Source: Candidatus Omnitrophota bacterium
Lineage (GTDB): Bacteria > Omnitrophota > Gorgyraeia > Gygaellales > Profunditerraquicolaceae
NCBI GenBank assembly: GCA_028717245.1
Contig: JAQUOD010000002.1
Span: 12,772 to 76,771 of the forward strand
Length of the DNA: 64,000 nucleotides
Direction: 5' to 3'
Part shown: piece after piece, positions 17,614 through 36,300 of the stretch
How the letters are laid out: the number at the start of each line of letters is the position of its first letter
Numbering within the stretch: position 1 is the first letter of the stretch
The notes under the pieces: generated by a model
Told to the model about the DNA's origin: nothing
The model's input: the letters and a program-made list of their open reading frames with translations, nothing else
Databases searched by the model: none
Translations under genes and position numbers: made by a program

Positions 17614-17627
17614 GTTATTTGAGTAAA

Positions 17628-17746: not shown

Positions 17747-17791
17747 TAGTTTATAGTGGTTTAGGTTTAATGGTTTAGTTTACTCGAATCG

Positions 17792-18250: not shown

Positions 18251-18350
18251 TCCAATTCTTTTAATGAGAAGTAGTTACTTCTCACAATGCCCTCTTTAAA
18301 TTAATAAAATTGTAGAGGCAATAATGAGAATTTTATATGTTAACCCGTCA

Positions 18351-21300
18351 TTAATAAGTTTTATAACCGTGGTAATACTCTAACGTTAAAGCGCCTAATA
18401 TTCCATAAATAGGGGCTGTCAACGGATTGAAGGTTGTAAACATCCCTGCGGAATCAGCCAAATGTGGCGGAACCCAATGAAGAGTAGCCCCAATATCACT
18501 AAATACACTTTGGGCAGTACCTTTTGAATAAAAAGCACTAACTAAATCAAAGTGCCCACCAATATTATTGCCTTGGAGCATCTTGGCTGCTCCTAAAGCA
18601 GTAAGTGTCATCTCACTATGAAGTCTATAGGTGGTTCCAGGATGTCCCAGCATATATTGTGCCAATTGACGGGAAGCCAAACTATTCTTAAATAACAGTT
18701 GCATGCCTCCGCGAATAATATCTGCTGCAACTCCTCTGGATTGGGTATAAATAACTCTACTGCCTGTTTCATTAGCAACCCGTAACGCTTTTTCTGGGGT
18801 GGTCCCTACCCCTTTACCTCGGACAGCCGGATTTCTAACTCCACCTTCCGGATCTTGAATACTAAGCGGATCATGAAAATAACTATTTATTCCTGTTCCA
18901 ACCACTGTCCCAGCAATGCCTCCCACCAGACCACCGGCAAAGCTATCCCAACTGTTAGTAGCACCGGCTACAAATGCTCCGGTTGCCAGCATCCCGACTA
19001 CAAAAGGGGTTCCGATGTTATAAGCTCCCCACCCGCCAAAAGCCCCTAAGGCGCCTCCAATGCCTGCGCCAATCAGGGCGCCTCTCCAGCCGCCTTCCAG
19101 GCCGCCGGTAACTGCACCTCCGGTCATCCCTCCCCAGAAACCCGCAACTGCCCAGGGTAAGCCAGCGCCAGCAGTAACTACAGCTACTACTGCTCCTACA
19201 AATGCCCCGACAATACTCTTCCAAAAGCTTTTCCAGGACCAGTGCCCTGTGGGGTCAATAGCGTTAATAGGATTATTGTTGCAGTAGGAATAACGGTTTA
19301 GTTCCTGGGGGTTATAGGGACGGGCAACCAAGGTATCCGCACTGATAAACCTCCCCACCTGTGGGTCATAATACCGAGCCCCGTAGAAGTAGAGGCCGGT
19401 TGCATCCAGCTCCTTGCCGTTGAACTTGTATTTAGCAGTATCGCTTCCCTGAACCTTAGCAACTCCTCCGTAAGGCTTATAGCTATTGGTCTGGGTGGCT
19501 TTACCTTGACTGTCGCTGATGACGCTGCTTGAGCCGAGATGATCACTGTGGTAGTAATTAGTCGTTAGTCGTTGGCCGTTAGTCGTTAGTGTGCAGACCC
19601 TGTTTGACCCGGCAAAGATGTGTTTGCGGGTTGTGCCGTCGGAATCTATTTCAAAGAGCGAGCCGATGTAGGTGGTCGTTAGTCGCTGGTCGTTAGTCGT
19701 TAGTGTCTTAACGACACGGCCGCCATCGCCATCGTATACGAACGAGGTAATTATACCGCTCTCATTTACCTGGGTCAAGCGGTTCTCAGCGTCATATTGG
19801 TATTGTTCGCTTCCCTTAGAGATTAAATTGCCGTTGGCGTCATAACTAATAACTGTATTGCCGAATTGAGTAGGCGCATGGGGCCTTGCGCCGTATTGGT
19901 AGCCTATGCCTTCCTTCTCTAAAAGGTTACCAATTGAATCATACCTATAATTCAGCGTCCCGTATTCACCGCTTGCCTTAATCAATCTGTCTAAATCATC
20001 ATATTGGAAAGCCTGTGTAGTGTCTTTTACCTTGTCTTCTATTTTAATGATATTGCCTGAATTATCATAGGTATAGCGCAGCTCCTGCAGGACTTCGTTA
20101 TTATTTTGATTCAGAGTGACGATGAGTGAGATTTGCGAGGTATTGGGGAGATAGCGGTAGTAAGTGGTGGTGCCATTGCCGTATTCTATCTTTAAAGTTT
20201 GGCCTGATGCGGCATAATCTATATTTTTTACAAAGACCGTAGAGTCCGTCTGGCTGTAAACCTTCTTGAGCTGGCCTGCTTTATTGTATTCATAGCTGAT
20301 TATTTCCCCGTCAGGATATTTCAGGGAAGTTAATCTGTCTAAAACATCGTAGGTGCGCTCAACGAGATATTGCTGTTCAGGGACAGTCCCCTTGGTTTCA
20401 ATTGAGTTAGATATCTGCGGGGACAGTCCCTTCACTGACTTGATTTCTCTGCCTAAGTTGTCATAGAAGAATTCGGTGGAGCCGGATTGGTCAATGACCT
20501 TGGAGAGCCGGCCGATAGAGTTTTCTTTTGTTAAATCATCGTAGGTATAGGCGGCTAAGGCCTCAGTAACAGCCCCCTGGCTGGGGATGAGCCCCTGTTT
20601 ACGCGTAAGGCGGTTTAGGGCGTCGTATTCAAAAGTAAGGATTTGGCCTTTGGCATCGGTTTGTTTGATTAAATTTCCCACAGCGTCGTATTCATAAGTC
20701 CAGGTTCCCATATCAGGGTCTTGCATTTTTATTTTCCTGCCTAAAGAATCATAAAAGATTTGGCTGGTATTTTTCTGGTTATCCACTACTTTTATCAGGC
20801 TATCCAAAGCATTGTATTCGTAATGGGTGGTATAAACTTCTGCTGCGTTGTATTCTTTTACCTCCACAATCCTGGCATAGGCATCAAAATATTCTTCTTT
20901 TTTATGGTTATTCTCGTCTATATAGGTAACTTTCCAGTCAGAGTAAATAGTTTGGGCATATGTCCCTTCGGGTTTGGTTATTTTAATTAATCTTCCCTTG
21001 GGGTCATAATCAAATTCAAACTTAGCTAAAGCAGTTAAATCGCTCGTATCAGGTTTATCGTTTACTTCAAAAGTATAATAAGCATTATATTTTTCTCGGA
21101 CATTCCCGCGGCTATCAAAGGTTACCCTGCCTGAAACTATTTGACGGGCTTTTTGAATTTGCGGGTCATCTTCTGCCGGAGATTTTATCTGCATAAGCCT
21201 GCCTAAACCGTCGTAAAAAGAGTAGGAGGTAAGATAGTTATTATTCTCGGCTTTTACCTTTTTGGTAACGCGATAAGGCAGGTTAGATAAATCATAATCG

Positions 21301-24300
21301 TAGATAACGCCGGGTGAGTCTTGCGTATCATTAGGGCCAATGGCTTTTATTAGGCGGTAGAGACTATCATAGACATAGGTTGTAGTTTGATTATTCAAGT
21401 CAGTAGTGGTCAGCACCAGGCCGCTTTTTAAATCAAAGGTCTTCTTGACGGTCTGGCCTAAAACATTGGTTGCCTTAATCGGATAGGTATAAGTCTGGGT
21501 ATCGTATTCCGTAGTAGTTGTCCTTCCCAAGGCATCAGTAGTTGAAATAAGGTTACCGTAAGAATCGTAAGTAAAAGTTGTGGCTAAGTATTTTTCCTCA
21601 CTGGTTAAAGGATTAAACAGCCAGGCCTCTTCTTTGGTAAGCAGGCCCTTAGCCGGAGCCTGGTTAATATCAGTTGTATTATCATAATAGAAGCGTTTTT
21701 CAGAAACTTTTTGTTGGTTGTATAAAAGAGAAGTGCGCTTAGGAAGCGCAATTGCCCAGTCAGAAGTGTTATAAGCATATTCGGTAGTTTGCGTCTTATC
21801 GTCTTCAATGATATCCACGTCACCATAATATATAACCTTGGTAGTATTGCCGTAATTATCATATTCAAATTCTGTGCGGGCATGTTTATAGCTTGCGTCA
21901 CCGTCATAGGTAAAATTATCGGCTGAGGAAAGATAGACAAAATAAACGCCCGGGTAAATTTCCGTATGCTGCCAGACATTTTCTATCTTAGAGTATAAGT
22001 TTCCGTCTTTATTTTTAAATTCCTGTTCATAGAGGCGGCCTTTATAGATGTTGTCCTGCTTAAAATAACTTTCTGTATAATTACCGTCGGCATCGCTGAC
22101 CTTGACATAGCTAAAGCCGCGGAACTCCCGCTCTTTTGGCTCAAAATAACCGTCTTTATAAAAATAAGTTGTAGGATAGGAATTGCCCTGGTTGTCTTCC
22201 AGGGTGAGCCTTGAGACAAGCTGCAGGCTAAAAGGGAGCTTACCGGTTTTATTGGGATAATAATTTTCATATTGAGTAGAAGAGGTATATTCAATTTTAG
22301 CCTTTGCGCCTAAGCCATTTGCGACTTCTACTAAAAGGTCGGCAGGTCCGGATAAATTTAGATAGGTCTTTTTATAACCGTCTTTGGCAATACAGATATC
22401 CATTAAACCATCCCCGTTTAAATCGGTTAAATAACGGGCCTGGTCGCGGCCCTGGCTATCCACAAAATCTCCGTCTGTAATATTAAAGGAGTCGTCTCTC
22501 CTCCAGCCTGAGCCAGTGTTTAAGTAAGTGGCGCGGTAACCGTCTTTAGCAATTAGCAAATCATTCAGGCCGTCTGCGTTTATATCTATCAGCACCCTTC
22601 CCTGGTTAACGCCGTTTTCGGTAAAATTACCGTCGGGAAGATTAAAGGCGTCATTCCTCACCCAGCCCGAGCCGGTATTAAGATAAGTAGCCTTATAGCC
22701 GTCAGCCGCGACTAAAAAGTCAGCTAAACCGTCGCCGTTGACATCCGCTAAGCGCCTTCCATTATCGCCTGATGCCGTAACATAATAACCGTCAGGCGAA
22801 TTCCAGCGCGCATCTTGCTGCCAGCCGCTTCCGGTATTAATATAAGTGGTGGTTGTCCGGGATATCACGTCAAGCGGCCGATAACTCCAATGTATCTCGT
22901 CAACGGCAATGGATAAGTCATTCAAGCCGTCGCCATTAAGGTCAGCGAATCTTATCCCGCCGTCTATGTGGTTACCATAAACAAAATATCCTTCAGGTAA
23001 ATTCCAGCTCGTATCTTTAAACCATTGAGGGTCAATGTTGTCAAGGTACTGAAAGGAGTAAGCATCTTTATATTGCCCGCCTGAACCCAGATACGGGTCC
23101 CAGAGCGCAGCTGCTAATAATTCGGGCATGCCGTCGCCGGTTAAATCTACGAGCCTGCGCCCGTCATCCCAGGTATTATAGATAAAATAACCCAAAGGTA
23201 CCGGCCACCAGTTGGGCTGCGAACTAAAACCCTGCGTGGAATTAAGATATGTAGCTTTTAACCACTGGCGGTCTGTTGATTCGTTGGGGTCGTAACGGGA
23301 GACAATAAAGTCATATAAACCATCGCCGTTTAAATCATAAAGCCCCCTGCCCTGGTTTTGTTCGGATTTGATAAAATCTCCGTCGGGGATATGCCACTGC
23401 GGCTGGTCGCCAGACCAAGCGCCGGAATTAGAACGATAGGAAAAAGTCAAAGGAGGCTGTGCGGTTTGGCCGTCAGAGCCATATTCGGTTACCTTGGTTA
23501 AGAGGCTCCTTGAGGTGGAAGGGCTTTGGGTATATTCAAGGCCGTATCTGCGTACCAGGTTATTATCAAAAGAGACCTCAATACTCTTTAGCCGTTTAAG
23601 CAGTTTTATTGGTTCGCCGGTAATATAGCTTAAAGATGTATCCGGCCTGGGTTCATAGGCGAAAGTAACTTTATAGCTTGCCGCAAGCTGAGTCTGCGCG
23701 TTTGCAGTATAGGAGATATTCAAAGGATAAAGGGTATTCTCTTCTTTAGAGTAACTGATGGTTAGATAATTACCTTCTAAATCCATCACCTTATCCAATG
23801 CCCAGGAAAAAATGCCTTTTGAGGTCGTGATGCGCGAGTTATCCGTCGAGCCGAAGAAATATTTTATTCCCTGCTTATCAGTTGTCTGCCAGGAAGCGCC
23901 GTCATAAACATATTTTATGAAACTGCCTTCAATTTCAGCCCTGTATTCATTATTGCCTGTGCTTATCAGTTCCTGGCTTTGGGCAATAAAGGCATCAGAG
24001 GAATTATAATCAGGAACGCCGCCTTTAGTAGAACGGTAAATACTGCCCAAATCTAAATCCCAGCCTTTTCCGGCTAATCCGTTGCCTTTAAGACTGCTGT
24101 AGGAGAGCGCTAAGTGCGGCTCTATCCCGTTTCTGCCTGCCGGAGTTTGTACCGGGATAGAGAATGTTGCCTGCCCGGTTAAAAGGTCAACGCCCAAATT
24201 TTCCAGCCCGTTTGAACTTTTGGGAACATCAGGGGAAGCGGTATCCGCAGAGACCGGCTCTTGATAATCCTCTTCGCTTAATTCATCCGATAATTCCGTA

Positions 24301-26411
24301 GGTATAGGGCTTTTAGAAAAAGATTGGACCACTTTAAAAGTCATTACCGCGCTCCAGTTGCTTTCCCCCTCGGTTTTTACTACCTTTACGCGCGCATAGT
24401 AATTCCCCGCCGTATCTAATTCGCTTAATTCGAGGGAATTAGAAGCCGATTCATAAGCTTTGGGGTTTTTAAAGTCAGCATCGGTAGAGATTTCTACTTT
24501 GTAATTTGTCGCCCCTGCTATTGCACTCCAATTTATCTTAGTAGTGCTTTGGAGCAGAGTATCATTAACCGCTTCTAATACGGGCGCGGTTATTGCAGGA
24601 GGAATAGGCGCAGGAGGAGTAGGCGGGTTGGGTGTTGGTGGTGGTGGGGTTGGGGGAATACCGCCTCCGCTACCACCAGAACCAGAAGTAGGTTGTTTGG
24701 GAGGAGGCGGCGGATTAACAACGTTAACGCTTAACTCACCCGTAGATGGATCCCGATTAATTTCTATGGTATTGCCGGTAGCAGGGTCTTTGTAGCTTTT
24801 ATCAGTCTCGCCGGGAGCTAAATCTATCTGGATTCCTTTAACTATTGCCCTTGCGCTGCCATCAGGATAAGCAGCGCGTGTGATAGTATCACCATTTACA
24901 TCCTTGGTAGAAGTATAGCCTAACCCTTTATTATTGCTGTAGGTAATATTGCCATTAGCGTCTATTTTAGTCTCGCTACGATAATCATCAGGGCCAACTG
25001 TTGTTTTTGTAATGCTGCCGTCGGGATGAGAGGTTGTTGTGGCCACGCTTCCGTCATCGCCATATGTTATCGTCGGCGTAGCGGTGCTACCACCGCTATT
25101 ACTGTTTACGCTCCTCTGTCCGCCTGTGGATGATATAGCTGGGGGTGTTGTTTGCGTTCCGCTTCCGTTAGAATTAACAATGGTAGTGGAATAACCACCA
25201 TTGCTATCGTAAGTGTTAGTTACGGTAGTGCCGGCTAAGGAACCGCCACTGCTTGCCGGATGATTATCCACAGTACTTGTAACCGCACCACCCGGGCTTG
25301 CATAGGTGATAGTCCTGGTGCTACCATCAGCATAGGTAGCAACGCCGGTATTGCCATTTCTCACAAGAGTTATGCCTCCGTTTGCCGCACCTGCGCCAAA
25401 AAGAGTTGTTGTCTCGCCATCCGAACCCCAAATTCCTTGCGTTTGACTGACGCTTAAGGCCTGGCCAATACCTGCCTCGGTGGTCAGGGCATATCCTATC
25501 CATTGGGCAGTGAATTCAGCTAATGATACGGTTTTTGTGATACTGTTATCTATATAGGTAATGCCTTCAACATCAATTCCGGTCACTACTACATAGTGGC
25601 CAAGGCCATTTCCTAAGTCTAAATGGGCAATTGCCGGTTGATTTAGATTTTTGAGGTCAGTAAGGGAGAGTTGGCTGGCGTAAAGATCCAAACCATATTC
25701 TTTGGCTACTTGCTGGATTCCATAGAGAGAGGTCTGGCCGTCTTGAGTATATAAGGCCAAGCTTTTAGCCAATATAGCGGAGTTGACATTAGACAAGAGT
25801 TGGGAGAGTGCGTAGACTGCGCAGTTCGGGATTGGAGGGCCGTGGTTATAAAGGTCAGCTTGGTACGTATTTATAACTGCTTTCTGTTCTTCGGGTTGAA
25901 TTCGTACGCTTTGGTTATTTTGGGGCTTTATGGCAGTGTCCTTATTTACCTGGCCATAAACTGGTATAGAATTTCCCTTTAGGCCCGCTACTAATTTGTC
26001 TTTTATGGGTTGAGGCTGGGTTTGCGGTGCAGGTGCGGATTGACTGGTGGCATCTATTGGTTTTACGGGTGTTTCTACGAAAACCGTATTATTTAAGTTA
26101 ACCGTTTGTTTGGCAGGTTTAAAGGATTGGGAATACGAAGCTGGCATAACGCCGGGATTATCATTCAAACAAGACGATATTTCCTCTGCATGCGCTAGGG
26201 GGACTATAAAAGAGGCTATTCCTTGGTAAATATTCCATAAAAAATCCCCCAATTTCGGTTGGGGGATTTGCGGGTAGCTAGTTTGCTCGGTTTGCGGCAG
26301 AGATATATGGTAGTCTGCTCTGGCTGCCCAGGTGACCTCGGAAAATAAAAACACTCCGGAAATAGTCAGGGCAACAATTTTTAACCACAATCTTTGACGT
26401 AAAGGATTCAT
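18351..26411 (-). CDS. giant RHS/Tc-toxin-like polymorphic toxin (~2686 aa): signal/TM, C39-like peptidase domain, Pro-rich linker, FN3, SpvB/TcaC N-terminal domain, FG-GAP/VCBS repeats, YD-repeat RHS shell, ...DPTGHW core end, Gly-rich hydrophobic + variable C-terminal toxin domain
   Basis: ORF track 18351..26435 starts at TTG; the ATG at 26411 (MNPLRQRLW) has a AAAGGGGA RBS; motifs NCAVYAL/GHYVVV (C39-like), DLNGDGL x6, many YD repeats, RYYDPQVGRFISADT...NPINAIDPTGHW. Confidence 0.85.
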   Translation of the reverse strand: MNPLRQRLWLKIVALTISGVFLFSEVTWAARADYHISLPQTEQTSYPQIPQPKLGDFLWNIYQGIASFIVPLAHAEEISSCLNDNPGVMPASYSQSFKPAKQTVNLNNTVFVETPVKPIDATSQSAPAPQTQPQPIKDKLVAGLKGNSIPVYGQVNKDTAIKPQNNQSVRIQPEEQKAVINTYQADLYNHGPPIPNCAVYALSQLLSNVNSAILAKSLALYTQDGQTSLYGIQQVAKEYGLDLYASQLSLTDLKNLNQPAIAHLDLGNGLGHYVVVTGIDVEGITYIDNSITKTVSLAEFTAQWIGYALTTEAGIGQALSVSQTQGIWGSDGETTTLFGAGAANGGITLVRNGNTGVATYADGSTRTITYASPGGAVTSTVDNHPASSGGSLAGTTVTNTYDSNGGYSTTIVNSNGSGTQTTPPAISSTGGQRSVNSNSGGSTATPTITYGDDGSVATTTSHPDGSITKTTVGPDDYRSETKIDANGNITYSNNKGLGYTSTKDVNGDTITRAAYPDGSARAIVKGIQIDLAPGETDKSYKDPATGNTIEINRDPSTGELSVNVVNPPPPPKQPTSGSGGSGGGIPPTPPPPTPNPPTPPAPIPPAITAPVLEAVNDTLLQSTTKINWSAIAGATNYKVEISTDADFKNPKAYESASNSLELSELDTAGNYYARVKVVKTEGESNWSAVMTFKVVQSFSKSPIPTELSDELSEEDYQEPVSADTASPDVPKSSNGLENLGVDLLTGQATFSIPVQTPAGRNGIEPHLALSYSSLKGNGLAGKGWDLDLGSIYRSTKGGVPDYNSSDAFIAQSQELISTGNNEYRAEIEGSFIKYVYDGASWQTTDKQGIKYFFGSTDNSRITTSKGIFSWALDKVMDLEGNYLTISYSKEENTLYPLNISYTANAQTQLAASYKVTFAYEPRPDTSLSYITGEPIKLLKRLKSIEVSFDNNLVRRYGLEYTQSPSTSRSLLTKVTEYGSDGQTAQPPLTFSYRSNSGAWSGDQPQWHIPDGDFIKSEQNQGRGLYDLNGDGLYDFIVSRYDPNESTDRQWLKATYLNSTQGFSSQPNWWPVPLGYFIYNTWDDGRRLVDLTGDGMPELLAAALWDPYLGSGGQYKDAYSFQYLDNIDPQWFKDTSWNLPEGYFVYGNHIDGGIRFADLNGDGLNDLSIAVDEIHWSYRPLDVISRTTTTYINTGSGWQQDARWNSPDGYYVTASGDNGRRLADVNGDGLADFLVAADGYKATYLNTGSGWVRNDAFNLPDGNFTENGVNQGRVLIDINADGLNDLLIAKDGYRATYLNTGSGWRRDDSFNITDGDFVDSQGRDQARYLTDLNGDGLMDICIAKDGYKKTYLNLSGPADLLVEVANGLGAKAKIEYTSSTQYENYYPNKTGKLPFSLQLVSRLTLEDNQGNSYPTTYFYKDGYFEPKEREFRGFSYVKVSDADGNYTESYFKQDNIYKGRLYEQEFKNKDGNLYSKIENVWQHTEIYPGVYFVYLSSADNFTYDGDASYKHARTEFEYDNYGNTTKVIYYGDVDIIEDDKTQTTEYAYNTSDWAIALPKRTSLLYNQQKVSEKRFYYDNTTDINQAPAKGLLTKEEAWLFNPLTSEEKYLATTFTYDSYGNLISTTDALGRTTTTEYDTQTYTYPIKATNVLGQTVKKTFDLKSGLVLTTTDLNNQTTTYVYDSLYRLIKAIGPNDTQDSPGVIYDYDLSNLPYRVTKKVKAENNNYLTSYSFYDGLGRLMQIKSPAEDDPQIQKARQIVSGRVTFDSRGNVREKYNAYYTFEVNDKPDTSDLTALAKFEFDYDPKGRLIKITKPEGTYAQTIYSDWKVTYIDENNHKKEEYFDAYARIVEVKEYNAAEVYTTHYEYNALDSLIKVVDNQKNTSQIFYDSLGRKIKMQDPDMGTWTYEYDAVGNLIKQTDAKGQILTFEYDALNRLTRKQGLIPSQGAVTEALAAYTYDDLTKENSIGRLSKVIDQSGSTEFFYDNLGREIKSVKGLSPQISNSIETKGTVPEQQYLVERTYDVLDRLTSLKYPDGEIISYEYNKAGQLKKVYSQTDSTVFVKNIDYAASGQTLKIEYGNGTTTYYRYLPNTSQISLIVTLNQNNNEVLQELRYTYDNSGNIIKIEDKVKDTTQAFQYDDLDRLIKASGEYGTLNYRYDSIGNLLEKEGIGYQYGARPHAPTQFGNTVISYDANGNLISKGSEQYQYDAENRLTQVNESGIITSFVYDGDGGRVVKTLTTNDQRLTTTYIGSLFEIDSDGTTRKHIFAGSNRVCTLTTNGQRLTTNYYHSDHLGSSSVISDSQGKATQTNSYKPYGGVAKVQGSDTAKYKFNGKELDATGLYFYGARYYDPQVGRFISADTLVARPYNPQELNRYSYCNNNPINAIDPTGHWSWKSFWKSIVGAFVGAVVAVVTAGAGLPWAVAGFWGGMTGGAVTGGLEGGWRGALIGAGIGGALGAFGGWGAYNIGTPFVVGMLATGAFVAGATNSWDSFAGGLVGGIAGTVVGTGINSYFHDPLSIQDPEGGVRNPAVRGKGVGTTPEKALRVANETGSRVIYTQSRGVAADIIRGGMQLLFKNSLASRQLAQYMLGHPGTTYRLHSEMTLTALGAAKMLQGNNIGGHFDLVSAFYSKGTAQSVFSDIGATLHWVPPHLADSAGMFTTFNPLTAPIYGILGALTLEYYHGYKTY
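25420..26411. repeat. inverted duplication arm 1 (5' ~1 kb of RHS gene), partner at 29291-30300
   Basis: ~85-90% nt identity when reverse-complemented, e.g. AAAATTGTTGCCCTGAC...GGGCAGCCAGAGCAGACTACC. Confidence 0.7.
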
Positions 26412-26464
26412 TTTGCTTGAGTCCCCTTTCGTCAATATAATTAAAACTCAAATAACTAATATAA

Positions 26465-26493
26465 AATATAACATATAAAAAGTAAGATGTCAA
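26465..26493 (-). promoter_or_regulatory. near-consensus sigma70 promoter for the RHS gene (TTGACA-17-TATATT)
   Basis: read on minus strand; ~55-nt leader to ATG 26411. Confidence 0.5.
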
Positions 26494-26597
26494 GGAAAGC
26501 GCTTTTTTATTTTATGTTTATTTTTGTGAAGGGAGAGTTCTATTGTAACTTCTTTAATTACAGCGTGTTATATAGAAACGGTCTGGATTGGGGAGGT

Positions 26598-28415
26598 TTA
26601 GATTTTAAGGCTATAACCCGTGGCTTTTTTGAGGCTGGCGAGAGAGGTTTGGTAATTACCCAGCGCCTGGATATATTTTGCCTGCGACTCCGAAAGATTA
26701 TACAGGGATTCCATCGCGCTAGAGAGGTTGGCTTCACCGACCATGGAACGGATCTTAATCACGTCTGTTTCATTGCGCCGGAATTTCATCTCCATCTCCG
26801 CGGTATTTAATTGCGAGATGGCCTTTTGGTAGTTAAAAAATGCCTCCTGGACCTCAAGGGTCACGGCCTTGGTAGTTTCATTAAAGTCGCTCAGGGAACG
26901 CCAGAGGTCTATCTCTGATTTTTTCTTATCCGATACGCGCTTAAGGTTATCCAGGACGCTGAAGTCCGCGCTGACCATTTGATACTTGCTGGGCTCGGCC
27001 TCGCCAAAGCGCGCCCTCTGTTTCTGGGCATTATAAGAAGTGCTGAAGGTGCTGCCTCCCCAGGGCTTGGTTAGCTTTACCCCGGCGAACCAGTTGTCCG
27101 TGTCTTCCCAGGGAGTATTGATATAATGCCCTTTGTAATACCCGTAAGAAGAGGTTAGGTCTATGCTGAAGGAATTTACGTCGCTGCGCTTCATCTTTTG
27201 GCTGTAGTCATTAAACTTTACCAGGAGCTCGCTTAAACGGATTTCCGGATGGTTAACCAGGGCCATCTCCGTGCAGGTAGATAATTCTAACTTTGTTTTT
27301 TTTGGCGCTGATAATCGCGGGGGCATAATATTGCCCAGTTCCTTGGTATTCAATACCTGCTTTAAGGTTAATTCCGCGTTCAAAACGTCTTGTTTTATGT
27401 TATCGGCCTGGAATTGTATTTGGTCAAACCAGGAACGCGCGCTATTTACTTCCAGGGGGATGACCATATCCGCCTGGCCTAATTTCTCTATTTTTCCCAG
27501 GGTCTCTTTCGCTTCCTCAAGAAGCGCCTCCTTGAGCCGCAGGTGCATCTTGGCCACGGCTAAATTATAATAGGCGGTTTCGGCCTTCTGCATCAATTCA
27601 AACTTAATGCGGTCATAATTTTTTTTGGTGATTTCCAAATCTACCCCTGCCTGCCTTACCGCATTCACTAATTGTCCTCCGCGAAAGAGCGGCTGGGTCA
27701 CTTCTACCGCAGGTTCCCATTCTTCGTAATCTACTTTATAGACATCGCCGTCTGTTTTATAGCCTGATATTTTTAGGGTAGGAAAGAGGTTGCGCTGGTT
27801 TTCCAGGATTTTAAACTGGGCCAATTCAATTTCCTGGCGCGCCACCTTAAGGGGCGGGTTGTTTTTTATGGCCAGGTCAACGAAATTATAGAGCGCCGGG
27901 TCAAGTTCCGCAGCGGCCCCTTTAAAATCTTCAGCCGACGTTTGCTTTTCTTCAACCGTTTCAGATAATCTTATAGGCTGCGTTAAATATGCCTGTTGTA
28001 AGGTCGGCATCTCTTGCGGTTCGCTCGGCTCTAAGGATTTATCCTGTTCGTAACTTATCGGCACAACCATCTCCAGTTCTTCCTTATTATAACCTTGGGG
28101 CAGGGGATAGGGGCTGGCGTCTTTTACGGCTAAGAGCGCCCCGGCATCCAGCAAGGGATAACCCGATGATTCCGCGATATTAATTTCTTTTATCCGGCCA
28201 CCCTGGTCCAGGGTGAACCTTACCTTTACCATGCCTTCCCAGCCTTTGGTTTGTGCCTCTTGCGGATAGACAAAACAAGCGCTTATTTTTTGCTGTATTG
28301 AGCTGATGTATTCGGGATTTAATAAAGCGGCCCGGGAGTAAGCGGGGTAGAGCAGGAGGAAGTTTATAAGAGCTATTATTCGGTATATTTTAACTATTTT
28401 ATGATCTATCTCCAT
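26598..28415 (-). CDS. outer membrane efflux protein (TolC-like) with N-terminal TonB_C-like domain
   Basis: TonB C-terminal signature ...GMVKVRFTLDQGGRIKEINIAESSGYPLLDAGALLAV...; then OEP/TolC-type repeats. Confidence 0.75.
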   Translation of the reverse strand: MEIDHKIVKIYRIIALINFLLLYPAYSRAALLNPEYISSIQQKISACFVYPQEAQTKGWEGMVKVRFTLDQGGRIKEINIAESSGYPLLDAGALLAVKDASPYPLPQGYNKEELEMVVPISYEQDKSLEPSEPQEMPTLQQAYLTQPIRLSETVEEKQTSAEDFKGAAAELDPALYNFVDLAIKNNPPLKVARQEIELAQFKILENQRNLFPTLKISGYKTDGDVYKVDYEEWEPAVEVTQPLFRGGQLVNAVRQAGVDLEITKKNYDRIKFELMQKAETAYYNLAVAKMHLRLKEALLEEAKETLGKIEKLGQADMVIPLEVNSARSWFDQIQFQADNIKQDVLNAELTLKQVLNTKELGNIMPPRLSAPKKTKLELSTCTEMALVNHPEIRLSELLVKFNDYSQKMKRSDVNSFSIDLTSSYGYYKGHYINTPWEDTDNWFAGVKLTKPWGGSTFSTSYNAQKQRARFGEAEPSKYQMVSADFSVLDNLKRVSDKKKSEIDLWRSLSDFNETTKAVTLEVQEAFFNYQKAISQLNTAEMEMKFRRNETDVIKIRSMVGEANLSSAMESLYNLSESQAKYIQALGNYQTSLASLKKATGYSLKI

Positions 28416-28427
28416 ATTATGATATTA

Positions 28428-28600
28428 TGATACGCTTAATATATAGGTAAAACATCAATTAAGAGTTGACTATGAATTTGGCTAAATTATAATGAATAAA
28501 TTTCCTTTTGTCAAGAGATTTTTGATACGCTATTGATACGCTATTATAAATAACGTAAAATCAAAGAGTTATCTTAGGTGATACTGTTGATGATACGATA
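28428..28600. repeat. four copies of GATACG(C/A)T direct repeat in the divergent control region (putative regulator binding sites)
   Basis: copies at 28429, 28524, 28535 (tandem, 11-bp phase) and 28592. Confidence 0.4.
28486..28514 (-). promoter_or_regulatory. consensus sigma70 promoter for the OMP gene (TTGACA-17-TATAAT)
   Basis: read on minus strand. Confidence 0.5.
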
Positions 28601-28605
28601 GCCAT

Positions 28606-28680
28606 TAGGGACGGTTCTCAATTACGGTTAAAATTGTCCCTTTTGGGGACAGTTTTATAGTTGACTGAGAACCGTCCCTA
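28606..28680. repeat. REP-like nested palindrome TAGGGACGGTTCTCA ... TGAGAACCGTCCCTA with inner GTCCC/GGGAC hairpin
   Basis: 15-bp perfect inverted repeats 28606-28620 / 28666-28680; same core as repeats flanking the transposase. Confidence 0.65.
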
Positions 28681-28699
28681 TTTTGGGGTACTTTCTACC

Positions 28700-28728
28700 T
28701 TGACGCGCCGAGGATTTTATGTTATATT
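28700..28728 (+). promoter_or_regulatory. sigma70 promoter TTGACG-17-TATATT giving leaderless transcript of ORF 28735
   Basis: -10 ends 6 nt before ATG; shares upstream CTTTCTACCTTGAC with the promoter at 29072. Confidence 0.45.
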
Positions 28729-28734
28729 CTTAAC

Positions 28735-29061
28735 ATGCGTTGTAAGATCTGTCAAAATGAGTTTAAACCTAATAAATACCGGCCTCAACAGCAGGTTTGT
28801 TCTCAACCGGAATGCCAAAAGCAGAGGCAGCTTCAGAATGAAAGGGGATGGCGGCTGAAAAACCCCGATTATTTCAAGTCTTTAGGGCAAGAAGCGTTCT
28901 GGCGGGAAAAACGCTCTCAATACCGTAGATTATGGAAGAAAAAACACAAAAAACACCTCAAAGAATATGCCGAAAAGCGCAAAAAAGAGCACCAGGAATA
29001 TATGCGCAAATATATGGCCGGATACCGCGCAACCCAGAATGTTAATAGAGAAAAAAGTTAG
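28735..29061 (+). CDS. small zinc-ribbon protein with highly basic C-terminal half
   Basis: CKICQ..CSQPEC motifs; 108 aa; ORF track. Confidence 0.5.
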   Translation: MRCKICQNEFKPNKYRPQQQVCSQPECQKQRQLQNERGWRLKNPDYFKSLGQEAFWREKRSQYRRLWKKKHKKHLKEYAEKRKKEHQEYMRKYMAGYRATQNVNREKS

Positions 29062-29071
29062 TTTTTCTACC

Positions 29072-29100
29072 TTGACAAACACCTATCCATTCAGTATACT
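29072..29100 (+). promoter_or_regulatory. consensus sigma70 promoter TTGACA-17-TATACT upstream of riboswitch leader of the giant gene
   Basis: exact -35, 17-nt spacer, TATACT -10. Confidence 0.55.
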
Positions 29101-29163
29101 TTAGATGTAAGTTAAATTTTTTTCCGCTATTTGTAAGCAGTTTCACAAAGTATTTTTATACCT

Positions 29164-29252
29164 GAGCGATAAAGGCAAACCCGCCGCAAGGCGGGGGCGC
29201 AAAGCCACGGATCCGACGGTAAATTCACTACGGATGGCCGGGTTACCGAAAT
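29164..29252 (+). ncRNA. c-di-GMP-I (GEMM-like) riboswitch aptamer
   Basis: GGCAAACC + GNRA(GCAA)-capped hairpin CCGCC/GGCGG + GCGCAAAGCC + second hairpin + GGGTTACCGA, matching hallmark GEMM elements in order and spacing. Confidence 0.65.
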
Positions 29253-29277
29253 AAGGTAACTCGGCTTTTTTATTAAA
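29240..29277 (+). terminator. riboswitch expression platform: hairpin GGTTACC-gaaataa-GGTAAC followed by CTTTTTTATT, 14 nt upstream of the TTG start
   Basis: 5' arm GGTTACC is also the 3' end of the aptamer, giving mutually exclusive structures. Confidence 0.55.
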
Positions 29278-29290
29278 AAGCGAGGCTAAA

Positions 29291-30300
29291 TTGAGTAACT
29301 GGCGAGAAAAAATCTGGTTAAAAATTGTTGCCCTGACCATTGCCGGAGTATTTTTATTTTCCGAAACCACCTGGGCAGCCAGAGCAGACTACCGCGTATC
29401 TATGCCTGAAACCGAGCAAACAAGCTACCCGCAAGTCCCCCAACCGAAATTGGGGGATTTTTTATTGAATATTTATCACGAAATAGCCTCTTTTATAGTC
29501 CCTTCAGCTCAAGCGGCTGAAATAGCGCCTTGCGGTGTAGATAAAGTAACTAAGAATATGCCTGTCTTAAATCCCAATTCTAATTGGCAAAAAGCCAATC
29601 AAACCGTAGTTTTATCAGAAAATAAGGCAATTGATACGGTTGATACAGTTGATACGGTTAAAAATAGCTTAATTGAAGAAACTGGAGATATGAGAGTAGC
29701 TGAAGCTGAGCAGAAGCCGCAAGGAGATGCGCCAGCGCCAACCCCAACGGTTAAGGATTCCGCGCTTCCTGCCCAAGCTCAGCCGCCTCAAGGTTCCGAG
29801 ACTCCCTCTGTCCCCGTAGATTACACTAAGATTAATAATACCAACGATCAAACCGGCTTTATTCCGATTAAACAAGCTCAATTACCTCAAGAAACCGCAG
29901 CGATTACTTTACATAGCAAGGATCCGCCTAAGATGAGCTTCAACTGCGCAGTCTCCGCACTCTCTCAACTCTTGTCAGATGTCAACTCCGCTATATTGGC
30001 TAAAAGCCTGGCCTTATATACTCAAGACGGCCAGACCTCTCTCTATGGAATCCAGCAAGTAGCCAAAGAATATGGTTTGGATCTTTACGCCAGCCAACTC
30101 TCCCTTACTGACCTCAAAAATCTAAATCAACCCGCAATTGCCCATTTAGACTTAGGAAATGGCCTTGGCCACTATGTAGTAGTGACCGGAATTGATGTTG
30201 AAGGCATTACCTATATAGATAACAGTATCACAAAAACCGTATCATTAACTGAATTCACTGCCCAATGGACAGGATATACGCTTACTACCGAGGCAGGTAT
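29291..30300. repeat. inverted duplication arm 2 (5' ~1 kb of giant plus-strand gene)
   Basis: see arm 1; encodes same TM + Pro-rich + C39-like module. Confidence 0.7.
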
Positions 30301-33300
30301 TGGCCAGGCCTTAAACGTTGAGCAGAGCTATAGCATAAAAGGGGCAGTGCCTTCTTTAAGCTATTTTGCCGCACCAGACGGTAATCTATATCAGAGAACC
30401 GGTGTGGGTGAAAATGGCCAGATGCAGAGCGTGCTCTATCATGGCAGCCAGACTTCTTCCTTTGGGTATAAAGGCACAAATTATCAAACCACCATCTCTG
30501 CCAATCAAGGCACAATCACTTATTCCGGCTATTTCCTGGGTGAAGATGGTAACCTGTATAAGATACCTGATAACAATTCCGGTCCAATCCAAGGCAACTT
30601 ATATGAAGGAACCCAGTCCCAGCCTTTTGACTATAAAGGGGCTACCTATCAAACCACCATTTCTGCTAACCAGGGCACCATCACCTACTCCGGTTATTTC
30701 AAAAGCGAAGACGGCAACCTCTATAAGATAACCGGCGCAGATGATGACGGCCAAATCCAGGGTTCCCTTTATGATGGCGAGCAGAATTCTTCCTTTGAAT
30801 ACAAAGGCACTACCTATCAAACCACTATCTCTGCTAACCAAGGCGTAATTATTTATTCCGGTTATTTTAAGGGCGAGGATGAAAACCTCTATAAGATTAC
30901 CGGCACCAGCGATGACGGCCAAATCCAGGGCACGCTCTACGACGGCAGCCAGATAGATTCCTTTGAATATAAAGGCGCTACCTATCAGACCATTATTTCT
31001 GCCAACCAAGGCGCAATTACCTACTCCGGATATTTCAAAGGCGAAGACGAGAATCTCTATAGGATAACCGGCGCAGATGAGGAGGGTAAGATTCAGGGCT
31101 CATTCTATGACGGATTTCGCGTTCTTGAGACCTATACTTATGCGGGGCAAAGCTACCAGATAGAAATGACTGCCACCCAAGGCCAGATTACTTATTCTGG
31201 TTTTTTTGTGGGCAGCGATGGCAACCTCTATCAGGTAACCGGCGCTGACGCCTCTACCGGCAATATCCAGGGCACTCTCTATACCCCTTCTACTGAATTG
31301 AATTGCGCGGTTCAGTCCTTAAGCGTGCTCCTGCCTGATATAGGCTCTGCTACTTTAACCCAGGAACTTCTTCCTTATACGGTTAATGGCCAGACGTCTA
31401 TGTACGGCATCCAGCAGGTCGCCAGCAAATACGGCTTAAACCTTTATGCGGTAGAATTCTCCTTAGAAGAAATCCTGCAATTAGGAGAAGGCGCCATTGC
31501 CCATTTAGTGGTGGGTAGCAATCAGGGCCACTGGGTGGCGATTTATCCAGAAAAAGGTATTTATATTGATAATGGCATAGAGAAATCCCTTGATGCTTCA
31601 GAATTTGCTACTCAATTTAGCGGATATATCCTAACCGTCCAATCGGATATTGGCCTGGCCTTAACAAATGAACAGATGCAGGGCATACAAGGGAGTGAAG
31701 TAGAACACTGGGATTTTAGTACGGATACGCCAGGTCCATATGAATTGGGTGGAGGAGCAGATGAGGGCGGCGTTGATATTACGATAAATGATGATGGCTC
31801 GGCTACTTATACCTATCCTGATGGTAGCTCAAGGGACGCCACATTTGATTCAGATGGTAATCTTACGAGCACTACTGATCATGACAGCGATGGCACTACC
31901 ATAATTAATGTTTATGGTGACGTAGATATTGGTATAGATGGAGACGAAGACGTAGACATTAATATAAACCAAGGGGGCAATGGATATATTGCTGTGGCCG
32001 GCGGCAATGTGGATATTACTATAAATGCCGGCGGCAATTTATCAAGTTTTACTATGACCGGCGGTAATGCAACTATTACTGCAAATGCAGAAGCTACAGG
32101 ATATATCGCAGGAGTAAGCGGCGGCACGCTCAATATCACAGATAACGGAGGGGACACGAGTGATATATATATAAATTCTGATGGTTATACCGGCGGTGTT
32201 ATAACTGTAGACGATAATCCAATTTCACTACCACCAGGCACACCACTATCCTATGAACCCGATTCAGATACTCCTGGGGTGGGTTCTTCTTCTGTAGCAG
32301 GTTATAATTGCGCAGTTTACGCCCTCTTGCAATTCCTCCCAGGTATAGGCCTTACAGCTTTAGCGCAAAAAATCAACGTAGAAAATTATAAATACCAAAT
32401 AGAGGCATTTAACAAAATTATAAGTAGTGAAATTTTCTTTGAAGTAATCATCAGAGTGGCTTCTGATTACGCTTTAGACTTAAACGCGGTTAAACTTACC
32501 TTAGAAGGGCTTCAGCAAATAGCAGAGCCGGCAATCGTCCATTTAGACTTAGGGAATGGCCAGGGCCATTATATAGTGGTTACCCAAACCGCAGATAACA
32601 CAATTACCTACATAGATAATGAGATCATCAAGACTGTATCAGAGGATGATTTTACGGCCCTCTGGACAGGATACGCCTTAATTACTCAACCAAATAATAT
32701 AGGAGAAGTTTTGGCCCTTCAGGAGATACTGAACATAAAAGGCGCTACGGTAACTATCGGAGGCCGTCGTGTTGGCGGCAGTAGTAGTAAAGGCAGCAGT
32801 AATTCAGGCGGCGGTAATACAACTGCTGGAGGCGGCAGCACTACTCAGCCCGCACAATCCCCTTCAATAGTCTCAGGCCCGCCAATGCCGCAAAGTTTAA
32901 AAGAATATCAAGATTTAAATAAAACTTTTCTCAATACCGACAAATATACTTATCAATATGACCGCAGCAAAGATATGCTAACCGTATACGACCATACAGA
33001 CCCCTCTAATGTTACAGCTATTATGGTTTATTATGATGCTACAGTTAGATCTGGGGATAAGCTCGTTGATGCTACTATTACCATAACAGTAGGTGGAGGA
33101 TCTCTTGTTGGCGGTGCCAAACCTACTTCTCCGGTTACGGTTATTGATGAGCCCGGTAAGGGTCCGTGGGTAGTTGATTTAACTGAAGTCTCTGATGGTT
33201 CACGGGTAACATATAATTTTATCGAAGGGACGACAACTACAATAACAGGTTCAGGAGGGCAAGATAATTCAACTATGGTTATAGATGATTGGAAAACAGG

Positions 33301-36300
33301 GCAAAAAACCACGCTTGACTATCAATGGAATCCTAGCCACGGGCAACAGCCTGTTAAGGCAACCGTAGTTAATGGCGGTACTACAATTGAGTACAATTAT
33401 AATATCTGGGGGCAGGTAGAGACGGTGCATACGGTAAATATAGATTCGTTGGGCCATATCGTTACTGATACAACACAGAACCCTAACGGCTTTTTCGTTT
33501 CCGAAGAGCCGCAAACTATTAACGGAATAACTTATAATGTCGCTTTAGATGACGATTACTATGGCCGTAACGCCGGGCAAGTCTTAGAATACAAAAATGA
33601 TAAGGGAGAGAAGTGCACCCAGATTTATGAGACGCTTTATATTGAGGGGAATATATTCACTGCTGTCCCTACTGAGTTTAGCGTAGTAGAGAACGGGATG
33701 TTGAAATATAGGGCAAATGCTACAGATTTTAGTGTGTATAAGGACGCAAGCGGAAATATAAATTTGAAGGTTGGGAAGAAAAACGTATGGGAGCATGTTT
33801 CTCCCTCCAACGACGGCTATCCTGGCTATCCTATTGTATATACTACTGATGCGCAAAATAAAATATTATCCATTGATATGGTTTTTGGGAGTAAGCCCGA
33901 GTTTACCAAAGTTGGCGCACAAGATATCTATACCAGCACAAACGGCTATGTGGTTGTAGAAAATGGTGAAATAAAAGACATAAATATTCTTAAACAAGTT
34001 GCGCAGCCTCAAAAAGATAATGGTGAGGTTTCAGCACCCAGCGTTAACCTCTCAGGCGAGCCGTATTCTGCTCAATGCTTTAGTGATTTTATCGGTGCTG
34101 GAATTTCCGATAAGAAATCTACGCCCACACCAACGCCTTCTCCAACGCCAACACCGACAGCTACACCGGCTCCGGCCCTATCTCCGACTCCAACTATAAC
34201 AGGTGGCGCATCTTCGCCTTCACCTCTTCAGCTAGTTATCGATACTTTTGCAGAAATAATCACTTTGGGAGGAGCTCAGACTCAAACCTATAATAGCAAC
34301 TGCGCGGCAAATGCTTTGAGCGTTGTCTTACCGGAAATAAACCCTTCCCTAAACGGAATAGATACTTATACCCTCTACAACCAACTCACTCCTTACACAG
34401 ACCAGCATAAGCAAACCTCTGAATACGGAATCCAGCAGATAGCTGCTAGCTATGGCGTAAAGCTTGATGCCACCAAAATAGATTATAATGGGCTAAGAAA
34501 TCTGGGGACACCTGCTGTAGCCCACCTTCAGCTTGATGAGGGTCAGGGACATTGGGTTGCGGTTAACCCTGAAAATGGTGTTTACACAGATAACGGCGCG
34601 ATTAATCCTTTAAATTCAGCAGAATTTAGCGAACATTTTGACGGTATTATTTTAGCCTCTACGCCTACCCGAGGCCCTCCGGTGAGTGTTGAAGAAACCC
34701 AAAACATAATGGGTGGTTTTGATTTTGGCAATGTGTTTTCTGGAGTTATTGGTGGAGTTTCCGGAGCAATAGGAGGCTTGATTTCCGGGTATGGCAATGG
34801 AGGAATTACTGGGGCAATTAATGGTGCAATTACCGGATGGCAAGCAGGATATAACGCAGGCAGTTCTACCGGAGTTTTTCAAGCCCCCAGCGCAGGATAT
34901 ACTGCAGGGCAACAATCTACAAACAGCCAACCTGTAACTAATTCAGCTACAATTCCAACTACAATAAATAATGGTTCATCCGGTGGCGTCGGTAGTTTAG
35001 GTTCTCTTCCGATTTTCCTCGCTATTGGTGCGCCTCTAACCATTCCTGCAAATAATCCCCCTCCCGCTGGCGCAGGAACTGGATTTTTAGATGACCCATT
35101 AGGTTGGTTGAATGACAATGCGCTTCAACCAGTGGGTAATTTCCTTACCAGAATCTTTGAACGGCAAGGGGAAGCTATGCTCGTTGAGGCCGAAGCGCAA
35201 ATGGCCGCAGGAAAGGCTATAGGTAATGCTATAGGTGATTACTTCGCTTCGGTGCAAAAATATGAATTGATGCAGCAAGAAAACGAAATATTGATGGCTG
35301 GGTTGATTGCAGACGTATTCACTCCGGATAAAGATTTTGATAAGATTGGGGCTGCGCAGGCGGCTCTAAGCGATGCTGATAAACTCATACAGGAGCACAT
35401 AGAAAATAACGGATATTTTAATACTTATGGAGACTTAGGAAAATATCTTTCAGATTTTATGGCTGACCGCGGTATCCCTGCTAATACCCAAGGGCCGCAG
35501 GACCAATCTGCAGCGCAGAAAGCTCTTGTTGATGCCTTGATAAATAAAGGCGTGGTCGATTTGGAAGAAATAGCAGGAATATCAACCACAGATATAAATA
35601 AATTATCCAAAAAGGACAGGGATACAATAATTGCTTGGGTCGGGGAAAAAGATAGTGAGATTGAAATAAGTAAAATAAATACTTGTTTGGAAGCCATAGG
35701 CATAGGTTTAGATAGTAATGGTAAATATGCGGTTACAGATACAGCTAAACTTCAAGATTCCCTGAGTTATCAAGGTGCGCAATACGTCACAAATTATTTT
35801 CCTTCATTTCTGACTCTCTTTTTGGAACCGACGGACACTGGTTTGGCTGCGCCTGCCAAGATATCCGGCGGAGAAGAAGCAAAAGCTAAATTGGCAGATT
35901 TACTGGGCGGGCTTAATTCCGATATTATAATGGATACAGCAGGTTTAAGCCTTAAAGAAAGAGAAACATACGGGCCTTTATTAAGTCAGTTAAAAGATAG
36001 CCCGGAAAATATTTCTATCAACTCTAAAGATTATATCACGCTTTTAGTTTTGGCGTGTAAATTTGTGGAGGGCGTAGAGGATAAAGCAGGAGTAAAGCCG
36101 GTTAACTCAATTTATACTAACCAGCCTGCGCCGTTGCCTGTGCCCGGGTCTCAGCCAGAGTTCGTCGGCCGAAATTCTTATAGCTGGGAAGTTATTGATA
36201 AAGATAAATTTGAGGCATTCAAAAAGGAAGTCGCTGAGGTTGAGGGATACGAATTCAAACGCAACTCTAACCTCATTAGCTCTTTACCCGAAGATATCAA

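Follow-up and report, generated by a model that had tools for sequence, protein, structure and literature searches.

Two genes that are otherwise unrelated begin alike in a 64,000-nt stretch of contig JAQUOD010000002.1 from a Candidatus Omnitrophota bacterium (hereafter, the window), and the question that the locus raises is why they should share a 5' part. Gene A, on the minus strand, and gene B, a giant gene on the plus strand, carry this shared part in inverted orientation on either side of a gene encoding an outer-membrane protein (OMP). We refer to it as the head; it consists of a signal peptide/leader, a linker, a C39 peptidase and a motif resembling a double-glycine leader. An earlier note on this DNA had described the heads as near-identical modules of ~330 codons (~1 kb at 85-90% nucleotide identity) with recent gene conversion and a possible inversion between them. 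The best explanation that we can offer, and a probable one, is that the repeat arms are paralogous modular heads of secreted giant proteins from one Omnitrophota clade, of which the C39 core was recently converted. Related loci are cited below by label (L004, L005, L012, L017 and L031-L034).

A repeat search, blastn and global alignment all identified the same two inverted-repeat blocks connecting the 5' ends of A and B (Table 1), and the inverted duplication is therefore real and not due to chance. The resemblance is patchy, however. The copies of arm 1 are 84-86% identical and those of arm 2 96.6%, whereas the linkers between the arms are of unequal length, share 35% protein identity and are unalignable as DNA. 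Although two strong DNA blocks stand out in the alignment of the N-termini, the whole heads share only 60% protein identity over 357 residues. The linkers also end differently: the final 20 residues of the A linker (YQADLYNHGPPIP) match the giant-gene orthologues in L032, L033 and L012, whereas those of B (ITLHSKDPPKMSF) do not. The OMP gene, a REP-like palindrome and a control region all lie between the arms, as had been described, together with a 108-aa open reading frame (ORF), and one hairpin of the control region belongs to a riboswitch. The picture of two giant genes diverging around the OMP gene fits B, but the OMP gene is on the strand of A, upstream of that gene.

The head belongs to a rare but conserved family. 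A profile of the leader (first ~105 residues) was run against 1.84 billion cluster representatives and matched 32 proteins (E <= 1e-10 for 20 of the 32); in nearly all of these the match begins within the first few residues. Genome and metagenome scans identified 28 related loci in Omnitrophota metagenome-assembled genomes (MAGs), MAGs labelled "uncultured Planctomycetales", one unclassified MAG and metagenome contigs. This distribution bears out the proposal of a shared N-terminal module, for which export and processing are the predicted functions. Neither NCBIfam nor Pfam contained a match for the leader, and a word-indexed homologue search returned one match for the A head, limited to the leader part, and none for the unit of C39 plus motif. 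The head of B is the ancestral one, and A carries a second head of the same family.

Within the leader, a signal-peptide-like stretch (WRxxIWLKIVALTIxGVFLFSEVTWAAR) precedes a second conserved part (IYQxIxSFxxPxAxA). The hydrophobic segment had been taken for a shared transmembrane helix; on inspection, it looks like a cleavable Sec signal peptide (a hydrophobic region of 12-14 residues, then TWA↓A) and not like a membrane anchor. A Kyte-Doolittle scan at a threshold of 1.8 did not call the segment. We also considered a type IV pilin-like signal and rejected it by inspection, as neither the Gly and Glu positions nor the order of cleavage site and hydrophobic stretch fit. Downstream, at residues 86-200, a DTV or NDTVxDTV motif occurs in 32/47 head members, compared with 36/387 background windows (9%). 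The DTV region of the B linker lies at window positions ~29590-29640; A has only a degenerate NNTVFVETPV there. The motif loosely resembles a TonB box, and this resemblance is suggestive because a TonB_C domain is encoded next door.

Pfam assigned Peptidase_C39 (PF03412) to A with 57 bits and to B with 154.8 bits over four stretches (cut-off 22), with the match beginning at model position 12. AlphaFold modelled the C39 unit of A with a pLDDT of 83 and a pTM of 0.79, including a confidently modelled motif region, and Foldseek placed PCAT1, ComA and LahT at the top of its matches (probability 1.00), with StbD-CT and 3zua also among them. The Cys, His and Asp residues expected of the family (C13, H88 and D104) are invariant in the five C39 copies of the window and present across related copies; the distance between His and Asp is near the 16 residues of ComA.

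We aligned 21 full-length C39 copies from the window and related loci, 19 of which have downstream sequence on their contig. In 18 of these 19, the motif L[STA]xx[EQ][LM]xx[ITLV]xG[GAS] follows 10-20 residues after the domain, and conservation ends right there. As a regular expression, the motif matched 22 times in 82,872 aa of long ORFs, with 18 of the 22 matches at the end of a C39 domain, and the rest of B (~9,700 aa) has no further copy. Its sequence agrees with the consensus documented for double-glycine leaders, LSXXELXXIXGG, in which positions -12, -7 and -4 are hydrophobic. Double-glycine leaders are found at the N-terminus of short exported peptides that a peptidase-containing ABC transporter handles; here, the motif is internal and directly follows the protease, and Pfam scans identified no ABC transporter gene in the window. 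Taken together, the domain and its motif suggest that each C39 cuts its own chain after the motif that follows it, at the candidate sites in Table 1.

Alternatively, the C39 domains may not cut their own chain, but instead act on other substrates, either as a toxin or as proteases of a prey surface, or dock non-catalytically like the C39-like domain of HlyB, in which case the motif would be a structural tail. West-Roberts et al. favor neither option over the other. Protease-inactive C39-like domains exist (3zua is one of the Foldseek matches), StbD-CT cuts foreign targets as well as itself, and the Gln of the oxyanion hole is not evident in the copies analyzed here. However, Cys, His and Asp are retained in all five window copies, unlike in HlyB-type domains; the motif agrees with the consensus of substrate leaders at -12, -11, -8, -7, -4, -2 and -1; and its position is fixed across divergent copies, whereas the residues beyond it vary freely. 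We consider this alternative unlikely, albeit with an appreciable chance of being correct, and we retain cleavage in cis as the predicted activity.

The near-identity of the C39 blocks raises the separate question of how it came about. In the 603 aligned nucleotides of the two arms, the 46 mismatches are strongly clustered, with 1/239 in a core, 5/67 and 8/72 at the edges of the C39 block and 32/225 in the leader block. None of 100,000 shuffles in a permutation test produced a 239-nt run with one mismatch or fewer. At third codon positions, the core has 1 mismatch in 79 and the leader block 15 in 75 (Fisher p = 1e-4), and synonymous divergence (dS) falls from 0.28 in the leader block to 0.095 in the C39 block. 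The C39 domains of A and B share 96% protein identity, whereas they are only 59-69% identical to their counterpart in L032 and L033, the first C39 of the giant-gene orthologues. A comparable relation is found in L012, where paralogous C39 blocks are 81% identical at the nucleotide level within the genome and 66-68% identical across genomes. These results support the interpretation that the inverted copies recently underwent non-reciprocal exchange (gene conversion) in the C39 core. The claim of recent conversion thus holds for the core, but not for the leader block, and the head as a whole is a mosaic of identities: the leader of A is 75% identical to that of B, and the leader of B is likewise 75% identical to its L032 orthologue, so that conversion is not demonstrated there. 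Because the end of the A linker matches orthologues and that of B does not, the heads have undergone more than one exchange.

If the whole head had instead been duplicated once, recently and without later conversion, the low-complexity linker would have had to diverge fast while purifying selection held the C39 domain. Low-complexity Pro/Gln linkers do evolve quickly and vary in length, and the leader blocks are no closer to each other than the B leader is to its orthologue. Selection at the protein level, however, leaves silent differences, yet these are nearly absent from the core by the third-codon counts above; divergence at the edges of the C39 block is similar to that of the leader block, which makes the core younger than its own flanks; and the mismatch between the two linker ends is a poor fit to one clean copying event. 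We regard this history as having a slim chance of being correct and favor duplication followed by conversion of the core.

The earlier note had also suggested that the repeats could invert ~3 kb. Inversion is geometrically possible, although the segment between the C39 arms is ~4.1 kb and no evidence supports its having occurred. The C39 arms are inverted, contain perfect stretches of 124 and 114 nt and lie in the same codon phase, so that a crossover would leave both resulting chimeras intact and place the toxin behind the riboswitch-controlled promoter. As a functional switch, recombination between the arms would flip the 4.1 kb, placing the riboswitch promoter and the B leader before the toxin body and, in the other product, the OMP gene and the A leader before the giant body. 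We searched for a recombinase or invertase gene and found none beside the arms; the only transposase is an IS200-type Y1 enzyme encoded 9 kb away. The repeats are thus long coding paralogues and do not resemble a site-specific invertible switch, which would have a recombinase gene adjacent to it. In addition, the window and both contigs of the short-read assemblies described below share the inner arrangement, although these contigs end at the core and so carry no phasing information, and the giant body is joined to the riboswitch-side head in the window, as it is in L032 and L033. We consider a functional inversion switch unlikely, with a small chance of being correct.

Two independent Logan short-read assemblies (SRR22315508 and SRR22315506) match the window at 100% over 25730..30038 and 25730..29203, respectively, and their contigs stop at 25730 and 30038, ~30 nt inside the identical C39 core. 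Breaks at an identical core are the expected behavior of a k-mer assembler at a true repeat, which indicates that the repeat is not confined to one assembly. An artefact of assembly or polishing, in which reads of one C39 copy were forced onto the other, is therefore very improbable even for a window from a MAG, where repeats of this size are error-prone, as contigs from two separate runs match the inner flanks at 100% and stop at the start of the identical core, the arms retain distinct edges and distinct flanks, and another genome (L012) has the same layout.

Table 1. Coordinates of features in the window (64,000 nt; +, plus strand; -, minus strand).
Feature	Position	Strand	Details and evidence
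Inverted-repeat arm 1, left copy: A signal peptide and conserved leader	26170..26414	-	245 nt, 84% to 29288-29532; blastn 226 nt at 86%; dS 0.28
Inverted-repeat arm 1, right copy: B signal peptide and conserved leader	29288..29532	+	Partner of 26170-26414
Inverted-repeat arm 2, left copy: A C39 peptidase domain	25450..25826	-	PF03412; begins at the catalytic Cys (NCA)
Inverted-repeat arm 2, right copy: first B C39 peptidase domain	29942..30318	+	377 nt, 96.6-97% to left arm
A linker, Pro/Gln/Thr-rich	25827..26169 (343 nt)	-	DNA unalignable to B linker
B linker	29533..29941 (409 nt)	+	Contains DTVDTVDTV; ends in deviant ITLHSKDPPKMSF junction
Putative gene-conversion tract in A	25521..25759	-	239 nt, one mismatch to 30009-30247; permutation and Fisher tests
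Putative gene-conversion tract in B	30009..30247	+	Partner of 25521-25759
Double-glycine leader-like motif after A C39 (LSVSQTQGIWGS)	25421..25456	-	Predicted cut after final Ser; P1 codon ends 25421
Double-glycine leader-like motif after first B C39 (LNVEQSYSIKGA)	30311..30346	+	Predicted cut after final Ala; P1 codon ends 30346
Second B C39 and motif LTNEQMQGIQGS	31298..31708	+	Predicted P1 codon ends 31696
Third B C39 and motif LALQEILNIKGA	32303..32755	+	Predicted P1 codon ends 32746; source of a 73% inverted repeat with A C39
Fourth B C39 and motif VSVEETQNIMGG	34295..34720	+	Predicted P1 codon ends 34717
Gene A: signal peptide/leader, linker, C39, fn3, SpvB, FG-GAP, TcdB_midN, RHS cocoon, C-terminal region past DPTGHW	18351..26411	-	Pfam
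Promoter-like site between OMP stop and A start	26465..26493	-	TTGACA-17-TATATT, with TG; consensus scan only
Lineage-specific insertion between OMP gene and first AcrB gene	14678..26597	-	~11.9 kb; synteny
Outer-membrane factor (OMP): signal peptide, TonB_C domain (aa 49-123), TolC-like OEP repeats	26598..28415	-	Pfam, NCBIfam
Promoter-like site for OMP gene	28486..28514	-	12/12 consensus matches; consensus scan
REP-like palindrome	28606..28680		75 nt: 35-nt arms, 80% complementary, 5-nt loop
Conserved 108-aa ORF, zinc-ribbon-like by inspection	28735..29061	+	CxxC...CxxxxC and basic Lys/Arg-rich tail; tblastn
Promoter-like site for B	29072..29100	+	TTGACA-17-TATACT; consensus scan
c-di-GMP-I-GGC riboswitch aptamer (RF03167)	29165..29251	+	73.9 bits vs gathering score 59, E = 1.2e-15, model positions 1-80/80
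Terminator-like hairpin and T-run (expression platform)	29236..29276	+	Over 3' half of aptamer
Gene B: head, four C39 units, ~29 hydrophobic segments from aa ~2830, Peptidase_M50 match	29291..64000	+	Open at window end

Gene A encodes 2686 aa from an ATG at 26411, a start that agrees with the Logan gene call. Pfam identified RHS_repeat (8.3e-35), SpvB (1.4e-26) and TcdB_toxin_midN (8.8e-24) in addition to Peptidase_C39, fn3 and FG-GAP, and the motif AIDPTGHW, of the DPxG type, precedes a variable tip, as in RHS proteins and the BC component of Tc toxins. This domain content identifies A as a fused TcB/TcC-RHS toxin cocoon. Exact sequence look-ups returned no record for A or for the AcrB protein. 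Past DPTGHW, the C-terminus (18351-19100, minus strand) has a Gly-rich hydrophobic stretch (GAFVGAVVAVVTAGAGLPWAVAGFWGG...) and then ~250 residues without a family match; this region is possibly a membrane-active toxin tip. Two lipoprotein-like ORFs lie downstream of A at 17792-18250 and 16900-17613 (GC 0.30-0.32). They have no Pfam or NCBIfam match and might encode immunity proteins. We found no TcA-like partner within the window.

Synteny marks A as part of an insertion. The OMP proteins of the four nearest relatives are 64-71% identical to that of the window (L031, L032 and L034, 64-70%; L033, 71%). In L031, L032 and L034, the OMP stop codon is followed directly by an AcrB gene that aligns to window position 14677, whereas the L033 contig ends after a 123-aa ORF that comes next to the OMP stop. 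From the contiguity of OMP and AcrB genes in the three relatives, we infer an ancestral operon of OMP, AcrB, AcrB and membrane fusion protein (MFP) genes, to which A and its head are a lineage-specific addition. The inserted DNA contains A, the two lipoprotein-like ORFs, a gene for an IS200-type Y1 transposase and an AAA_14/DUF4143 gene. GC content was ruled out as a sign that A is foreign, as A (0.45) is similar to its neighbors (0.43-0.47). L012 (ORJL010261732.1), with an OMP 53% identical to that of the window, also has a second gene with leader and C39 downstream of the OMP gene, such that heads at 2-994 (minus strand) and 4823-6487 (plus strand) flank it; the L012 contig ends within the C39 of the OMP-downstream head copy. 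In the remainder of the window's operon, the AcrB-type resistance-nodulation-division (RND) transporter at 11102-14677 (minus strand) has a C-terminal HTH_DeoR-like match (aa 1133-1177), with a faint counterpart in the L031 orthologue, and a tRNA gene (6474-6548, plus strand) lies between the MFP gene and a FIST-domain gene, on the strand opposite to both.

The ancestral head belongs to a cassette made up of a TonB_C-TolC-like OMP gene, the 108-aa zinc-ribbon-like ORF, a cyclic di-GMP (c-di-GMP)-I-type riboswitch and a leader-bearing giant gene. In every related locus with enough flanking sequence, the leader-bearing gene diverges from a gene with TonB_C and OEP domains. The OMP of the window matches PF02321 with 133.8 bits in two stretches, corresponding to two OEP repeats, and its score against TIGR01844 (type_I_sec_TolC) is 110 bits, below the cut-off of 225. 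A TonB_C domain is not a feature of TolC itself. An identical protein, deposited with an NCBI MAG, bears the name "TonB family protein [Candidatus Omnitrophica bacterium]"; a first genome scan using the OMP alone gave no match. The OMP family comprises ~89 clusters, almost all with TonB_C and OEP, and the named sources are nearly always Omnitrophica/Omnitrophota. A tblastn search recovered the 108-aa ORF from 26 related loci (54-67% identity), and in each of them it sits between the OMP gene and the riboswitch. Neither Pfam nor NCBIfam gave a match to it. In the window, its ATG lies only 7 nt past a -10-like hexamer, and its mRNA may consequently be leaderless.

In most related loci, the region upstream of the leader gene contains a riboswitch of the c-di-GMP-I clan. 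The aptamer of the window lies behind the promoter-like site of B, and the minimum-energy fold without ligand forms the terminator hairpin at 29236-29266. As this hairpin dominates the ligand-free fold, an ON switch is the predicted direction, and the riboswitch probably turns B on when its ligand is present. No riboswitch was found upstream of A, even at E = 1. The other conspicuous hairpin of the control region, at 29180-29195, is GC-rich and belongs to the aptamer. In many loci, riboswitches of the same clan, sometimes in tandem, also lie downstream of the OMP gene on the OMP strand and precede the next gene (for example, L004 5143-5561, L005 5110-5485, and L017 4105-4197 and 6499-6590).

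Gene B starts with TTG at 29291 and runs for at least 11,582 codons stop to stop. Its four Peptidase_C39 domains lie within the first 1,830 residues, and a crude hydropathy scan counted 29 hydrophobic segments. The match to Peptidase_M50 (site-2 protease-like) falls within the membrane-spanning part, at residues ~8770-8820 (window ~55560-55710, plus strand). Between the first and second C39 (residues ~365-665; window ~30350-31250, plus strand) are about six tandem repeats of ~50 residues with a consensus like YKGTxYQTTISANQGxITYSGYFxGEDGNLYKITG, which are also present in the L033 orthologue.

The control region does contain a REP-like palindrome, as the earlier note had stated. Its terminal 11-mer, GGGACGGTTCT, has 4 matches in place of 0.58 expected, and it also flanks the Y1 transposase gene (16065-16739) in inverted orientation (16052-16062 and 16798-16808), which suggests that the palindrome and the IS200-type transposase form a REP/RAYT-like pair. 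Nucleotide similarity to L032, L033 and L034 ends at 28715, and the palindrome lies in the stretch that does not align.

The arrangement of the head suggests a mechanism in which the signal peptide would carry the N-terminus across the inner membrane, and each C39 would then bind the leader-like helix after it and cut past G[GAS]. In A, the cut would free the head from the toxin cocoon; in B, the cuts would divide the first ~1,800 residues into four fragments and separate these from the body. The neighboring OMP would be the probable exit or anchoring partner. In this account, gene A arrived with the ~11.9-kb insertion between the OMP gene and the RND pump genes and brought the second head with it.

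Several observations weigh against this account of the heads as modules for export and self-cleavage with a recently converted core. The signal peptide was called by eye, and cleavage by the C39 domains is predicted from sequence and a model. The C39 domains of peptidase-containing ABC transporters (PCAT) act in the cytoplasm, whereas those of the heads would sit outside the inner membrane. With respect to the oxyanion hole, no Gln is conserved in the 12 residues before NCA, where [GD]PP is conserved instead, and the C39 at aa 2972 in L004 is the one copy that lacks the motif. In near relatives, the OMP gene heads an ordinary-looking RND operon, such that only synteny would tie it to the giant gene. 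The leader block has no conversion signal of its own, and no related locus except L012, which is more distant, has two heads as the window does; the two layouts are possibly independent duplications instead of the product of long-term concerted evolution.

A more specific proposal would be that the head is a portable, self-releasing export tag, in which the DTV-rich strand is captured by the TonB_C domain of the OMP in the periplasm and the C39 then frees the cargo. We consider this proposal speculative, with a small chance of being correct. If true, it would constitute an undescribed route by which giant proteins and a Tc/RHS toxin are moved across or onto the outer membrane under a c-di-GMP-type riboswitch, and recombination between the in-frame C39 arms could also swap which cargo is under riboswitch control.

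The more general account of the heads bears on how bacterial proteins of 10,000 to >100,000 residues are exported and processed. A protease followed by its own substrate signal gives exact cut sites that can be tested, and the head, strictly paired with a TonB_C-TolC channel, a small ORF and a riboswitch, forms a compact cassette with them. The presence of the same head on a Tc/RHS toxin, kept alike by conversion, suggests that the head functions as a unit of its own, whatever the cargo.

Individual parts of this locus have counterparts in known systems. In Salmonella, tufA and tufB are inverted coding repeats that are kept alike by non-reciprocal recombination and can also mediate inversion; here, by comparison, only a patch of ~240 nt in one domain is homogenized. 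Riboswitches of the c-di-GMP-I type also occur upstream of genes for large surface proteins and adhesins, and, as in the window, an aptamer with a terminator platform lies in the 5' leader of a giant envelope gene; in contrast to those, the riboswitch here is of the GGC variant, whose ligand has to our knowledge not been established, and it is tied to one gene cassette across a clade. Two-partner secretion (TPS; TpsA/TpsB) and LapA-LapE provide an analogy only, in that a giant exported protein with an N-terminal recognition module is paired with a neighboring OMP carrying a periplasmic binding domain. In the window, the OMP is TolC-like, has TonB_C and is not of the Omp85/POTRA type, and there is neither a TPS domain nor an ABC transporter of a type I secretion system. 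Gene A shares SpvB, FG-GAP, TcdB_midN, RHS repeats and a DPxGxW-type motif with Tc TcB-TcC fusions and RHS toxins. We know of no described Tc or RHS protein that has an N-terminal head of signal peptide, leader and C39, although our search was not exhaustive.

The closest precedents for the C39 unit are the PCAT and ABC transporter maturation and secretion (AMS) proteins ComA, PCAT1 and LahT, with which it shares the Pfam family, the fold and the Cys/His/Asp triad, and whose substrate leader, LSxxELxxIxGG, is the motif found here. In the heads, however, protease and motif are on one polypeptide with the motif C-terminal, no ABC domain is present and the Gln is not evident; the domain follows a signal peptide, which predicts a location outside the cytoplasm. 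For StbD-CT, self-cleavage in cis by a C39 at a di-glycine, regulated by redox, has been shown experimentally (bioRxiv 10.64898/2026.05.07.723447; PDB 8ssk). As in StbD-CT and Cpe1, the C39 of A would be part of a large secreted polymorphic toxin and cut its own chain. In StbD, the cleavage site lies in a linker that precedes the protease, which itself forms the C-terminal toxin cargo, whereas here the site is C-terminal with a full leader consensus and the protease is in the N-terminal head.

The system nearest to B is that of the Omnitrophota giant proteins of the "Archaeovorin" type, which are likewise multi-pass membrane giant ORFs with an N-terminal C39 near a predicted signal peptide. 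For such giant genes, self-processing has been proposed (bioRxiv 10.1101/2023.11.21.568195), and an architecture cluster of giant proteins with PF03412 has been described (bioRxiv 10.64898/2026.06.07.730766). Both papers give the cleavage points as unknown, which, according to West-Roberts et al. 2023 (bioRxiv 10.1101/2023.11.21.568195), blocked further analysis. The published giant proteins are reported to have SecA-like domains, and their genes a type II secretion-like locus upstream and pilZ genes downstream, whereas the window has the OMP gene and RND operon upstream of B; there is also no SecA match in the 11,582 residues of B within the window, beyond which lie the 3' end of B and its downstream region. 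The accessible parts of these papers give no account of the leader family, the motif after C39, the pairing with OMP gene, ORF and riboswitch, or a Tc/RHS toxin that shares the head. C39 heads on Omnitrophota giant genes are thus known, and what this locus would add is a defined head family with its cassette, a Tc/RHS toxin sharing the head, a protease predicted to be followed by its own substrate and probable control by a riboswitch.

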